64,000 nucleotides of DNA from Escherichia coli (GTDB lineage Bacteria; Pseudomonadota; Gammaproteobacteria; Enterobacterales; Enterobacteriaceae): NCBI RefSeq assembly GCF_050920415.1, contig NZ_CP169309.1; one strand, 5' to 3'. The position numbers and the translations under genes are program-made. Under the pieces are notes generated by a model. That model searched no databases. It saw nothing but the letters and a program-made list of their open reading frames with translations, and was not told where the DNA came from. Within the stretch, counting starts at the first letter, position 1. Each line of letters begins with the position of its first letter. Shown here piece by piece: positions 20,268-26,694 of the stretch.

Positions 20268-21290
20268 ATGTCACTAACCAGACGGAGGTTTACACAGATT
20301 CTTGCGTCGACATTGTTCCTGCATCATCTGCCGTCCTTTGCACAATCAGTCAAATTCTGGGCCTCACTGACGCTTCCCGAAGCCCAAAACATTACACGCA
20401 TCGTCAGCGCAGGCGCGCCCGCCGATTTACTATTGCTGGCTGTCGCGCCAGAAAAAATGGTCGGTTTTTCCTCTTTTGATTTTGCCCGTCAGGCATTAAT
20501 TCCATTGCCAGAGCACATTCGCCAGTTCCCCAGGCTGGGACGACTCGCCGGGCGCGCCAGCACACTCTCGCTGGAAGGGCTTATGGCATTACATCCCGAT
20601 TTGGTCGTTGATTGCGGCAATACGGATGAAACCTGGATCTCCCAGGCACGGCAGGTTAGCGAACAGACACAAATACCCTGGTTATTGCTTAACGGGAAAC
20701 TGGAACAATCAGCAGAACAGTTAACAACGCTTGGCAAAACGTTAGGCGAAGAGCACCGCGCCGCAGAACAAGCCAATCTCGCCAGCCGCTTCGTTGGTGA
20801 AGCTAAGGCATTCGCCACCTCACCCGCCGCTAACCTCAGCTTTTATGCTGCGCGCGGTCCTCGAGGGCTGGAAACGGGCTTACAGGGTTCGTTGCATACC
20901 GAGGCGGCGGAATTATTAGGTTTGCACAACGTCGCGCAAATAGCCGATCGCCACGGTCTGACACAGGTTTCCATGGAAAATCTCCTGCGCTGGCAGCCGG
21001 ATATTATTCTGGTTCAGGAGGCCGTTACTGCAGATTTTATTCGTCGTGATCCTCTCTGGCAGGGCGTGAAAGCGGTTGCGGAACAACGCATCTTATTTTT
21101 AAGTGGCCTGCCCTTTGGCTGGCTGGGTGCCCCGCCGGGAATCAACCGTCTTCTGGGATTACGCAGACTTCACGCCTGGCTGGATCCCGCCATCAATCGC
21201 CAGTTTAAAAGTGACATGCAGCATTACGCCCAACTGTTCTGGCATTGCCCATTAAGTGACGCTGACTATCAAAAATTGGTGGCGAGCTAA
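20268..21290 (+). CDS. Periplasmic substrate-binding protein of a metal-chelate ABC importer (FecB/BtuF/TroA-like fold)
   Basis: 340-aa ORF; N-terminus MSLTRRRFTQILASTLFLHHLPSFAQ resembles a signal peptide with a twin-arginine-like motif; first gene of a tightly packed six-gene operon. Confidence 0.7.
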   Translation: MSLTRRRFTQILASTLFLHHLPSFAQSVKFWASLTLPEAQNITRIVSAGAPADLLLLAVAPEKMVGFSSFDFARQALIPLPEHIRQFPRLGRLAGRASTLSLEGLMALHPDLVVDCGNTDETWISQARQVSEQTQIPWLLLNGKLEQSAEQLTTLGKTLGEEHRAAEQANLASRFVGEAKAFATSPAANLSFYAARGPRGLETGLQGSLHTEAAELLGLHNVAQIADRHGLTQVSMENLLRWQPDIILVQEAVTADFIRRDPLWQGVKAVAEQRILFLSGLPFGWLGAPPGINRLLGLRRLHAWLDPAINRQFKSDMQHYAQLFWHCPLSDADYQKLVAS

Positions 21291-22270
21291 TGAGAACCGT
21301 AAACGGATGTATTTTGCTGCTGGCAGCTATCAGTATCACTTTTGCCGCCGTAAGTGGGGCTTATCATCTCGATATACAGCAACTGCTGGCGCTCATTCTG
21401 CGTCAAGAAAATGTTCCTGTGCAGGAACAAATTGTCTTCTGGCAAATCCGCGTGCCGCGTATTCTTGCTGCGCTGTTTCTGGGCGCGGCGCTGGCAGGGG
21501 CCGGAACCACCTATCAGGGAATGTTCCGTAATCCCTTAGTGTCACCGGATATTTTAGGCGTCTCCGCCGGTGCCGGACTTGGTGCCTGCGCGGCAATCCT
21601 GTGGGGATTATCCATTGTTTACATCCAGCTGTACGCATTTTGCGGCGGGCTGATGGTGGTCGCGGGCGTCTGGTTGATTACGCGTCGGGTGACCCGCCAC
21701 GATCCGATCTTAACCCTGGTGCTGGTAGGCATTGCGTTAGGAACGTTGTGCGGAGCGGGGATATCGCTAATAAAAACGCTGGCCGATCCTTACACCCAGT
21801 TACCGTCAATTACCTTCTGGTTGCTGGGGGGGCTGTCCACCGTGACCTTACGCGATCTCTGCTATGCTGCACCGATCATTCTCATAGGCTCCTTGCCCCT
21901 GTTTTTTCTCCGCTGGCGCATGAATTTACTCACGCTTTCCGACGACGAAGCCCATTCGCTGGGACTGAACGTGACACGTCTGCGCTTTGGATTGATTGTC
22001 TGCGCCACACTCATCACCGCCAGCACGGTAGCAATAGCGGGCATAATTGGTTGGGTCGGCCTGGTCGTTCCGCACATTGCCCGCTTGTTGACCGGTCATA
22101 ACCATCAGCAGCTATTGCCCATGGCAATGTGTACTGGCGCGATTCTGCTCCTGCTTACCGATACGCTGGCACGCAGCATTGGAACAACAGAAATCCCACT
22201 TGGCATTCTGACCGCTTTTGTTGGTGCACCGTTTTTCCTGTTTTTGTTGTTACGCGGAGGTCGCCAGTGA
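21290..22270 (+). CDS. FecCD-family ABC permease
   Basis: 326-aa polytopic membrane ORF; start overlaps upstream stop (TAATG). Confidence 0.75.
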   Translation: MRTVNGCILLLAAISITFAAVSGAYHLDIQQLLALILRQENVPVQEQIVFWQIRVPRILAALFLGAALAGAGTTYQGMFRNPLVSPDILGVSAGAGLGACAAILWGLSIVYIQLYAFCGGLMVVAGVWLITRRVTRHDPILTLVLVGIALGTLCGAGISLIKTLADPYTQLPSITFWLLGGLSTVTLRDLCYAAPIILIGSLPLFFLRWRMNLLTLSDDEAHSLGLNVTRLRFGLIVCATLITASTVAIAGIIGWVGLVVPHIARLLTGHNHQQLLPMAMCTGAILLLLTDTLARSIGTTEIPLGILTAFVGAPFFLFLLLRGGRQ

Positions 22271-24698: not shown

Positions 24699-24723
24699 TT
24701 CTTTGTTAAACGGAATTTATTCT

Positions 24724-26694
24724 ATGAGACTCAAAAAACGTTATCTCTGCACAGTATTATCACTTGCCTTTACCCAGCAGGCCGTAGCAGCTCAAGAGAG
24801 CGACACGCTGACCGTATGGTCCAGTCCGGTATCATCAACGACGACCACCGTTCTCGATCAACCCACCATGAAGGCCCTGGATAAACAGAATGTCGCTCAG
24901 GCATTAAGTGTCGTCCCCGGCGTGGTACTGCAAAAGTCAGGTAGCCGCAACGAAGAACAGGTCAAAGTTCGTGGCTTTGATAGTCGTCAGGTGCCGGTCT
25001 ATTTCGACGGTGTGCCCATTTATGTTCCCTATGACGGCAACCTCGATCTGGCGCGGATTCTGACCAACAATTTGGGGGCAGTTGAAGTTTCCAAAGGGTA
25101 TTCGTCGCTGCTTCAGGGGCCTAATCAGATGGGCGGAGCCATTAATATCACCCCCCAGAAGCCAACAAAACCTCTGGAAGCAAGTCTGGGATATCGCCAG
25201 GGATGGAGCCGTAGCCAGGACAATGCCTACGATATGCATGCTTCATTTGCCGCCAGCAGCGATCTGGGGTATTTGCAAGTCAGCGGTAGCCAGCTAAAGC
25301 AGGATTTTCTCGGCCTGCCGCATGGTGTAAATAATGATATTGCAGGCAAACACGGCAAGATGATTAATTCATCGGCTGATGATAAACGCGGCATTGTGAA
25401 GCTCGGTTTTACACCACGCGAAAACGAGGAATACACATTGACTTACATTAAGCAGGATGGTGAAAAAGATAACCCGCCATACAGTGGAAATAGTGGTCAG
25501 AAATCACGCTACTGGCAGTGGCCAGAGTATGACAAAGAAAGTTTTTATTATCAGGGAACGACCCAACTAAACGATCGTTTTACCCTGAAAAGTCGGCTGT
25601 ATCGCGACACCTTTGAAAATACGCTAATGATGTACAACTCGCTGGCTGATTTGAAAAATAAAAAAGGCAGCTACAGCCATTATTCCGATTACAGCGACGG
25701 TGCCGGGTTACAACTGGCAGCCGATGTGCGTGAAAACGATCTGCTGTCGTTTGCCGTTAACTGGAAAGATGACGTACACCGGGAAAAAGGTGCGCCGCAC
25801 GCCGCTTACGATCGCTATGAAGATCGTACCTGGTCGCTCGCCAGTGAATATCAATGGGCTGCTGCCGATAATGTCGATGTCGTGGCTGGAATCAGCTATG
25901 ACTGGCGCGATAGCGTAGAAGCGAAAAAACATGAGAAAGATGGCAGTATCACCCATTATGACGACAACAATCAGTCAGCTTTTAACTGGCAGGTGATGGG
26001 GAAATACCACTTTGCCAATGAAGACACGCTGGCGCTTTCGTACTATGACCGCACACGCTTTCCGACGCTGAAAGAACGCTATACCACGTCCAAACCTGCG
26101 TATAACCAGATAGCGATTGTTAACCCGCAGCTCAAGCCGGAACGCGCGCGCGGGGTGGATTTAACCTGGAATGGTGCCTTCACGCACGACTGGGGATTTG
26201 AGGTCAGCGTTTACTATAACCGGGTGAGTGATGCCATCCTCTCGCACAATATCGATGCCGATACCATTCAAAATCAGAACAGCGGCACGGTGGATTACAG
26301 CGGTCTGGATGCCGGTATTAAGGGGAAAATCAGCAATATACTGGATGTAGGATTGAGCTACGCCCTGATCCACGCTGATGCCAAACGTAAAGACATCGGC
26401 AAGATAACCGATCTGCCAACGCAGACAATGACCGCATGGATGACTCTCAAACCGTGGGAGCCGTTAAGCGTAACGCTGTCGGAAGAGGCGCGTTCCTCCA
26501 GCTACAGCAACAGTGACGGTTCACAAAAAGCCGCCGGTTTTGCGGTGACCCACATTCGAGCCGATTACACCTTAGGTCATGGCTTCAGCGTTAATGCCTC
26601 GGTCAATAACCTGTTTGATACCAAATATGCCTACAGTGAAGGGTTTATTGAAGAAGGTCGCAATTTCTGGGCAGGTGTCGAATATACGTTCTGA
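24724..26694 (+). CDS. TonB-dependent outer-membrane receptor
   Basis: Signal peptide MRLKKRYLCTVLSLAFTQQAVAAQE, TonB-box-like DTLTVWS, plug then long beta-barrel, C-terminal ...GVEYTF with terminal aromatic; start chosen at the ATG at 24724 rather than the TTG at 24703. Confidence 0.8.
   Translation: MRLKKRYLCTVLSLAFTQQAVAAQESDTLTVWSSPVSSTTTTVLDQPTMKALDKQNVAQALSVVPGVVLQKSGSRNEEQVKVRGFDSRQVPVYFDGVPIYVPYDGNLDLARILTNNLGAVEVSKGYSSLLQGPNQMGGAINITPQKPTKPLEASLGYRQGWSRSQDNAYDMHASFAASSDLGYLQVSGSQLKQDFLGLPHGVNNDIAGKHGKMINSSADDKRGIVKLGFTPRENEEYTLTYIKQDGEKDNPPYSGNSGQKSRYWQWPEYDKESFYYQGTTQLNDRFTLKSRLYRDTFENTLMMYNSLADLKNKKGSYSHYSDYSDGAGLQLAADVRENDLLSFAVNWKDDVHREKGAPHAAYDRYEDRTWSLASEYQWAAADNVDVVAGISYDWRDSVEAKKHEKDGSITHYDDNNQSAFNWQVMGKYHFANEDTLALSYYDRTRFPTLKERYTTSKPAYNQIAIVNPQLKPERARGVDLTWNGAFTHDWGFEVSVYYNRVSDAILSHNIDADTIQNQNSGTVDYSGLDAGIKGKISNILDVGLSYALIHADAKRKDIGKITDLPTQTMTAWMTLKPWEPLSVTLSEEARSSSYSNSDGSQKAAGFAVTHIRADYTLGHGFSVNASVNNLFDTKYAYSEGFIEEGRNFWAGVEYTF

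Follow-up and report, generated by a model that had tools for sequence, protein, structure and literature searches.

A candidate ModE-repressed, TonB-dependent molybdate/tungstate acquisition operon between treA and ymgE of Escherichia coli

Gene content of the treA-ymgE interval

We analysed a 64-kb stretch of Escherichia coli DNA (contig NZ_CP169309.1, hereafter the window), more specifically the six genes at positions 20268-26694, which the open reading frame (ORF) list and the translations place on the + strand, in one direction, between treA and ymgE. As argued below, these genes probably form an uptake system for molybdate or tungstate (Mo/W). They are listed here with coordinates, strand, assignment and, in brackets, the source of the assignment.

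20268..21290, +, binding protein, Peripla_BP_2, cluster A (ORF list, NCBIfam, translation)
21290..22270, +, FecCD-family permease of an ATP-binding cassette (ABC) importer of type II, MolB-like (NCBIfam, solved-structure match)
22267..23025, +, ABC ATPase, "fepC" in the named cluster (NCBIfam, RefSeq, translation)
23035..23847, +, class I S-adenosylmethionine-dependent methyltransferase, "yc73" (NCBIfam)
23844..24698, +, ModD, a paralogue of quinolinate phosphoribosyltransferase (TIGR01334)
24724..26694, +, TonB-dependent outer-membrane receptor, "prrA"; this is the RefSeq start, and the ORF opens with a TTG at 24703 (NCBIfam, RefSeq, translation)

An earlier reading, made from the letters and their ORFs alone (the sequence-only reading), had described six same-strand genes joined by three stop/start overlaps, namely TAATG at 21288-21292, GTGA at 22267-22270 and ATGA at 23844-23847. 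The ORF list, the translations and the RefSeq annotation all agree with this description, the identical six coding sequences being annotated in NZ_CP169399.1, an E. coli chromosome that is 100% identical. The RefSeq annotation also gives treA and ymgE/ycgR as the flanking genes. The six gene classes were recovered by the NCBIfam search.

The sequence-only reading had also allowed that the operon might turn out to be a named, characterised system with a known substrate. A name it does have: the cluster is published as prrA-modD-yc73-fepC, and it is equivalent to S-loop 83, or O-island 55 (OI-55), of O157 Sakai (ECs1693-ECs1699) and to genomic region GR9 (6382 bp) of the avian strain BEN2908. 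Older papers imply that CFT073 has a further copy, located on a pathogenicity island. A known substrate it does not have, as neither a substrate nor a regulator or phenotype of the operon was found in the searchable literature. A search with the locus tags ECs1693-1698 returned comparative genomics without function, and one with Z1961-Z1966 returned unrelated noise only. At least 80% of the block is present in 2139 of 5426 complete E. coli genomes (~40%). Carriers include NU14, O157:H7 and O145, and the alternative form of the interval, with ycgY, is found in K-12 and O104:H4.

A predicted ModE operator in front of the operon

The AT-rich leader of the binding-protein gene contains the following features.

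20197..20202, +, TTGACA, the -35-like hexamer of an inferred promoter, with the ModE box 15 nt downstream of it (read from the sequence)
20218..20245, no strand, predicted ModE operator TTCGCTATATA-tgtaag-TATATATCGGT (consensus match, AT-rich leader)
20256..20259, +, Shine-Dalgarno sequence AGGA, 8 nt before the ATG of the binding-protein gene (read from the sequence)

The E. coli ModE consensus, as quoted by Rodionov et al. (PMC545781), is ATCGNTATATA-N6-TATATANCGAT. The predicted operator matches 18 of its 20 specified positions and ends 22 nt before the first ATG of the operon. On the same scale, the experimentally established modA operator of K-12 scores 16/20, and it ends 18 nt before the modA ATG. 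No other site in the 64-kb window reaches 16/20, and the simpler pattern TATATA-N5-8-TATATA is found there a single time, and never in 100 shuffles (0/100). Since the Shine-Dalgarno sequence lies only 8 nt before the ATG, the interval between the box and the ATG is too short to hold a promoter. Together with the TTGACA upstream, this suggests, as far as the sequence can tell, the geometry of a repressor site, with the operator placed between, or over, the predicted promoter and the ribosome-binding site. The hexamer recurs, as TTGAC(A/T) at an equal offset, in many orthologous promoters. We did not find a link between ModE and this operon in the literature, although the 2003 survey of ModE sites (Studholme & Pau) and the regulon databases lay outside our search, so that a prior record is possible.

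Conservation of the operator, and the absence of iron and cofactor signals

One genome per species was scanned with a ModD alignment, which yielded 80 loci. The operon is present at 50 of them, nearly always as six genes in the same order, with a few loci truncated or carrying a damaged gene. The genera concerned are Escherichia, Citrobacter, Raoultella, Enterobacter, Klebsiella (K. indica), Yokenella, Serratia, Symbiopectobacterium, Proteus, Providencia, Morganella, Pantoea, Erwinia, Pectobacterium and Affinibrenneria. When the upstream regions of 18 taxa from ~14 genera were aligned on the box, the box itself held 1.28 bits per column, compared to 0.31 and 0.28 in the two 45-nt flanks.

The site is also specific in its placement. 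We scanned the 50 operon loci (980,503 nt) at the threshold of 16/20, and all 68 sites obtained (68/68) occupy one of two positions, in front of the binding-protein gene (43 loci) or within the gap between modD and the receptor gene (25 loci), with none elsewhere. The gap sites occur in Proteus, Providencia, Morganella, Pectobacterium and Serratia, in which this gap measures ~100-290 nt. In Edwardsiella, the methyltransferase-modD pair stands alone, without the transporter, and has its own ModE box in front.

The view found in the literature is a different one. According to this view, the operon gives pathogenic E. coli an accessory route for iron (siderophore or haem), and the ModE-like palindrome would be non-functional or a secondary input. 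It draws on the papers naming the cluster, which call iron uptake "proposed" or say that the cluster is "possibly" mediating it, and on the RefSeq names "iron ABC transporter substrate-binding protein" and "FecCD". A Fur box is the only testable prediction of the iron hypothesis, and this prediction fails: no Fur box lies upstream of the operon at up to 3 mismatches (the best upstream match is 13/19), and 55 orthologous promoters give best scores no different from those of shuffled sequence, so that none is conserved. The ModE box, in contrast, is as specific as the known operator and conserved across families of the Enterobacterales. Given in addition what ModD, the MolB-like permease and the receptor relatives indicate, all of them pointing to Mo/W (see below), we regard an iron system as very unlikely.

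Positions 19500-27400 were scanned against Rfam with a permissive threshold, and no riboswitch was detected, whether for cobalamin, for the molybdenum cofactor (Moco) or of another kind. The sole Fur-box-like site of the window is elsewhere (GAAAATGATAACCAGTATC, 9185-9203, 3 mismatches), between ychF and the autotransporter gene ycgV and ~460 nt upstream of the latter.

Binding protein and ABC importer

The best solved relative of the permease is HI1471/MolB of Haemophilus influenzae (2nq2_A, E 1.5e-64, 221 bits), followed by HmuU (171 bits). In this ranking of PDB matches, MolB stands clearly above HmuU, FhuB and BtuC. For the ATPase, HI1470/MolC is the second-best solved match (8e-36), which is not distinctive.

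The binding protein carries a twin-arginine signal, TRRRF, whose RR pair is invariant or nearly so in 17 orthologues. When searched as a family profile, it matches 4pag (1e-43), then 4ovk and 4hn9, then MolA/HI1472 (1e-13, residues 172-331), and all of these outrank the binding proteins for iron, haem and B12. As a single sequence, it matches MolA at 8.5e-8. Its matches to the curated iron families are weak and far below cut-off (31.9 against 320 for the FecB type, and 25.5 against 205 for FepB), which also argues against the iron view.

The H. influenzae genes are themselves found in a molybdate context, as molCBA lies between modA (HI1469) and modD (HI1473) (PMC3928620). In this organism, molB is repressed by molybdate, and MolBC-A carries free molybdate (PMC4031551).

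ModD and the methyltransferase

The fifth gene product scores 502 bits with the ModD model TIGR01334, whose cut-off is 178.85, and it has a homologue in quinolinate phosphoribosyltransferase (1qpn, 3.5e-20). In our own reading of the alignment with the enzyme of Mycobacterium tuberculosis, the TRK, HR, E, D and GG motifs are kept, and Lys172/Asp173 are replaced by Phe/Ala. ModD is therefore probably an active phosphoribosyltransferase acting on a different substrate, as judged from these residues.

Outside the operon, ModD is repeatedly found next to modABC or nif genes. It is the last gene of modA-modB-modC-like operons in Actinobacillus and Gilliamella, it follows modB in Thiorhodococcus, and it adjoins nifH in Pseudomonas kuykendallii. 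In Cedecea colo, two ModE boxes lie between modD and the modABC-like operon from which it diverges. A metagenome-assembled genome (MAG) of the Alcaligenaceae shows a similar arrangement, with modD divergent from modABC and ModE boxes in between. The nif cluster of Zymomonas contains modD, modE and two TonB-dependent transporters (PMC8594446).

The AlphaFold model of the methyltransferase (pLDDT, the predicted local distance difference test, of 89) matches only generic small-molecule methyltransferases in a Foldseek search, at a template-modelling score of ~0.5 and 13-18% identity, and this search gave no specific likeness to oxyanion methyltransferases. At the sequence level, CpaM, which is corrinoid-protein-associated, is matched weakly, at 44 bits where the cut-off is 180.

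These two enzymes invite the proposal that the operon has no relation to molybdenum, and that its cargo is a compound of the pyridine or nicotinate kind or some other cofactor, such as a corrinoid, with ModD as a salvage phosphoribosyltransferase and the methyltransferase in a tailoring role. The homology of ModD to quinolinate phosphoribosyltransferase, the resemblance of the permease to BtuC as well, and the CpaM match are all in line with this proposal. It does not account for the ModE boxes, which are found in front of the transporter genes and also of the methyltransferase-modD pair where this stands alone, nor for the consistent position of ModD beside modABC or nif genes, and a cobalamin or other riboswitch is lacking. 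We consider it very unlikely.

Several loci bear on the wider occurrence of these enzymes. Shewanella avicenniae and S. mangrovi (L005 and L006, 8001-8816 in both) have a lone methyltransferase that shares 63-64% identity with Yc73, so the enzyme need not travel with the transporter. The neighbours of the Shewanella gene encode a thioesterase of the 4HBT type, a rhodanese-domain CoA-disulfide reductase and a Nitro_FeMo-Co (NifX/NifB-like) family protein. In Edwardsiella hoshinae (L031, 11643-12857), a 405-residue MoeB/ThiF-family adenylyltransferase-like protein and an EamA-type transporter are encoded downstream of the methyltransferase-modD pair. In an Actinobacillus MAG (L075, 10927-12693), pth and ychF follow directly after modABC-modD; the E. 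coli pth-ychF pair (window 7026-8818) lies ~11 kb upstream of the operon, which could be an old remnant of synteny or a coincidence. Finally, a 3.2-kb contig binned as "MAG: Collinsella sp." (L010) encodes an ATPase, a methyltransferase and a ModD that are 98-99% identical to those of E. coli, and almost certainly came from E. coli into this actinobacterial MAG through a binning error.

The receptor and its relatives

The product of the sixth gene has the features expected of a TonB-dependent receptor. Plug and barrel Pfam domains are recorded on its orthologues, it is similar over its full length to TonB-dependent receptor subfamilies, it has an N-terminal TonB box, (D)TLTVWSSP, and it ends with an aromatic residue. 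The TonB box and the C-terminal GRNFWAGVEYTF (terminal YTF) are conserved in the orthologues. It falls below the cut-off of every curated receptor family (123.7 against 223.5 for siderophore, 120.9 against 316.85 for haem), so that the iron view has weak sub-threshold matches to count here as well. Against solved structures, it gave only a weak match in the plug domain.

We searched for relatives of the receptor among 1.84 billion representative proteins. Orthologues with 59% and 45% identity are followed by proteins with 33-37% identity (340-370 bits). The neighbourhoods of six relatives were examined and are listed below with their identity to the receptor.

P0242, 45%, with binding protein, FecCD permease, ATPase and methyltransferase genes beside the receptor gene
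P0246, 36%, operon of the P0242 type with a fragmented methyltransferase gene
P0250, 34%, at the end of an operon of ModE, ModA, ModB, a ModC-MobB fusion and Mop (all above the NCBIfam cut-offs), and followed by a TonB gene
P0245, 34%, adjoins a gene for a TupA-like binding protein
P0252, 36%, adjoins a gene for a TupA-like binding protein, with moaC, moaD and moaE nearby
P0248, 34%, context uninformative

Hence, among the nearest non-orthologous relatives (34-36% identity, 347-368 bits), three are found in Mo/W contexts. The metagenomic operons in question (L098, L099 and L092) have the arrangements modE-modA-modB-modC/mobB-mop-receptor-tonB and TupA-like-receptor. They share with the window operon a receptor of the same family, over its full length, and differ from it by their type I ModABC/Tup importer and by having neither ModD nor the methyltransferase.

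Two of these receptor-bearing mod/tup operons also encode small proteins of 171-180 residues with an Oxidored_molyb domain (L092, 8152-8667; L098, 5280-5822), the one in L098 belonging to no NCBIfam family. In a contig similar to that of Citrobacter koseri (L007, 12717-14831), the operon and ymgE are separated by an additional gene, of opposite orientation, for a TonB-dependent receptor of 704 residues.

A proposed function in molybdate or tungstate acquisition

We consider it likely that the operon is a ModE-repressed, TonB-dependent molybdate/tungstate acquisition system, because three independent lines of evidence agree: the predicted ModE operator is conserved and specific, the homology and neighbourhood of the MolB-like permease and of ModD point to molybdate, and relatives of the receptor are found in mod and tup operons. 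The genes present are best explained as a MolBC-A/ModD system in variant form, to which an outer-membrane receptor and a methyltransferase have been added. The sequence-only reading had held that the substrate could not be read from the sequence; the conserved predicted operator and the Mo/W gene neighbourhoods suggest that its class, at least, can be.

The system would work as follows. When molybdate is sufficient, ModE-molybdate would bind to 20218-20245 and block transcription as it does at modABC, both the binding and its sign being inferred from the site. When molybdate is scarce, the operon would be expressed. The PrrA receptor would then actively move a Mo/W species, its presumed substrate, across the outer membrane, the binding protein, presumably exported by the twin-arginine translocation (Tat) route, would capture this species in the periplasm, and the MolB/MolC-like type II ABC importer would move it into the cytoplasm. 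There, the methyltransferase and ModD might carry out a step related to molybdenum.

Several observations weigh against this interpretation. The usual cargo of TonB-dependent receptors and type II ABC importers is a chelate or a cofactor rather than a bare oxyanion. A generic promoter scan called no full sigma-70 promoter upstream of the operon. The binding protein is not a demonstrable orthologue of MolA, its sequence similarity being partial (C-terminal half) and its best relative, 4pag, being uncharacterised. The operon conserves two enzymes that are not known to serve in the use of molybdate, and one of them, the methyltransferase, occurs alone in Shewanella. The receptor relatives examined are only six, one of them without a molybdenum context, and the literature assumes iron. 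Even MolA of H. influenzae binds molybdate weakly, at ~100 uM (PMC3928620, PMC4031551).

A rival reading is that the operon is under ModE control and that its cargo is Mo/W on an organic ligand, i.e., a catecholate-type "molybdophore", a pterin or a Moco-related compound, with the two enzymes modifying the ligand and releasing or recycling the metal. A TonB-dependent receptor, a cluster-A binding protein and a FecCD importer form the architecture of a chelate or cofactor system, and the two cytoplasmic enzymes accompany the transporter in ~14 genera. The model of the methyltransferase resembles small-molecule (natural-product) methyltransferases, ModD keeps most of its phosphoribosyl pyrophosphate-binding and catalytic residues with a changed substrate pocket, and at one Alcaligenaceae locus a Fiu-like catecholate receptor is encoded near modD-modABC. 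Nevertheless, the operon includes no genes for chelator biosynthesis, no Moco or cobalamin riboswitch was found, and the methyltransferase-ModD pair occurs without the transporter in Edwardsiella, as does the methyltransferase alone in Shewanella. MolBC-A transports free molybdate, and the related receptors accompany ModA and TupA, which bind free oxyanions. We therefore regard a cargo of this type as unlikely. The free oxyanion is the most likely substrate on our analysis, because the related receptors share operons with the oxyanion-binding proteins ModA and TupA.

Comparison with known transport systems

The closest parallel to the proposed molybdate/tungstate system is MolBC-A of H. influenzae (HI1470-HI1472), a low-affinity "secondary" molybdate/tungstate importer. 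Both have a type II (BtuCD-like) importer with a cluster-A binding protein, MolB is the closest solved relative of the window's permease, the ATPases are similar, and modD is next door. The window operon has both an outer-membrane receptor and a methyltransferase, neither of which is listed in the mol cluster as described in PMC3928620. Transcription of the Haemophilus mol genes is repressed by molybdate, and the window operon has a canonical predicted ModE operator.

With the high-affinity, ModE-repressed ModABC system of E. coli, the operon shares the predicted regulator, the type of operator and its placement, and probably a role in molybdenum homeostasis; in other bacteria, operons of the modABCD type have modD as their fourth gene. 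ModABC, unlike the window operon, encodes a type I importer whose binding protein is of the ModA family and lacks an outer-membrane component of its own, and its proteins are not homologous to those of the operon, save for the generic ABC ATPase. BtuB-BtuFCD, for cobalamin, and the Fec, Fhu, Fep and Hmu systems, for iron chelates and haem, have the same three-compartment architecture and belong to the same superfamilies. They differ by their control, which is by Fur or by a cobalamin riboswitch, neither of which was found at the window operon, and by the lack of ModD and of a Yc73-type methyltransferase.

History of the treA-ymgE site

Two features mark the right-hand end of the operon.

26671..26694, +, last 24 nt of the receptor gene, kept in K-12, at the right edge of the K-12 replacement (alignment, BLAST against K-12)
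26702..26731, no strand, inverted repeat GCGGATAGC...GCTATCCGC in the gap where the receptor gene and ymgE converge (read by eye)

The inverted repeat is also kept in K-12, as seen in the alignment, and is probably, from its position and sequence, a terminator shared by the receptor gene and ymgE.

The sequence-only reading had stated that K-12 has ycgY alone between treA and ymgE, which holds for MG1655, where the operon block is not present. It had also described the operon as inserted at this site, and this description does not stand. In E. albertii and ~10 Citrobacter species, the operon occupies the same site, directly after treA and before ymgE-ycgR, and it directly follows treA in Raoultella, Enterobacter and Intestinirhabdus as well. 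Moreover, K-12 keeps a piece of the receptor gene: on the right side, homology to K-12 starts at 26671, 24 nt inside the gene (alignment and BLAST), and the K-12 sequence GCAGGTGTCGAGTATACGTTCTGA encodes AGVEYTF and the stop codon. This stretch is a genuine coding relic, since the C-terminal strand GRNxWxGxEY(T/K)F is kept in receptor orthologues from Proteus to Citrobacter. On the left side, homology stops at the treA stop codon. Neither blastn nor tblastx revealed further degraded remains of the operon in the K-12 ycgY segment beyond the 24-nt relic.

Signatures of mobility, not visible to the sequence-only reading either, were not found, there being no tRNA gene within 10000-36000, no flanking direct repeats, and no annotated integrase or insertion sequence. 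The GC content of the block (0.50-0.56) is not atypical. Only 9 plasmid records contain the block, all of them non-mobilizable and from E. coli; two are chromosome-sized (4.9 Mb), and these records are thus probably misclassified chromosomal sequence. A plasmid or other mobile origin, or an acquired island, was considered and rejected, given the lack of mobility genes, tRNA and direct repeats, the occupation of the same site in related species, and the K-12 relic. On the sequence comparisons, the simplest history is that the operon is ancestral at treA-ymgE and was replaced by the ycgY segment of ~0.6 kb in K-12-like lineages. If the K-12 state is the result of a replacement or deletion, it follows that no acquisition mechanism should be visible.

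Over the last ~140 nt of treA (19800-19938), identity to K-12 is 86%, compared to 96% in the ymgE flank. The C-terminus of treA thus differs between the haplotypes carrying the operon and those carrying ycgY, suggesting that both are old.

Possible significance

No TonB-dependent receptor assigned to molybdate or tungstate was found in the searchable literature. We tentatively propose, as a possibility we hold with less confidence than the function of the operon itself, that PrrA and its relatives constitute a family of TonB-dependent outer-membrane transporters for molybdate/tungstate, and that ModD and the Yc73 methyltransferase are new Mo/W enzymes. If so, molybdate and tungstate would be added to the substrates of TonB-dependent transport, and the ModD family would gain a testable function. 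A large share of the pathogenic E. coli (among them NU14 and other B2 strains, and enterohaemorrhagic E. coli (EHEC) O157 and O145), as well as Proteus, Providencia, Morganella and Citrobacter, would then have a complete, energised and ModE-controlled route for Mo/W, mislabelled for two decades as an iron system, a label used in the genomics of extraintestinal pathogenic E. coli and of EHEC.

Respiration dependent on the molybdenum cofactor drives the blooms of Enterobacteriaceae in the inflamed gut, and tungstate has been used to poison this pathway. The proposed TonB-energised Mo/W route, present in ~40% of complete E. coli genomes and absent from K-12, could alter the competition for molybdenum and the response to tungstate. 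Anaerobic respiration dependent on this cofactor has been reviewed as a fitness and virulence factor of pathogens (PMC7759655). With regard to comparative genomics, O-island 55 would be an ancestral locus lost from K-12-like strains rather than a pathogen-specific acquisition.

Other observations in the window

Two regions downstream of the operon merit a brief description. At ~29655-33499, RefSeq marks cvrA as a pseudogene whose C-terminus is missing, and a hypothetical protein of 469 residues (WP_001363897.1, ~32090-33499) is encoded between cvrA and dadX, where K-12 presumably has nothing; this may be another strain-variable segment. On the minus strand at ~49747-54429, a gene for a 1560-residue autotransporter with AIDA repeats follows minCDE, and is itself followed by a fragment of an ATPase gene.

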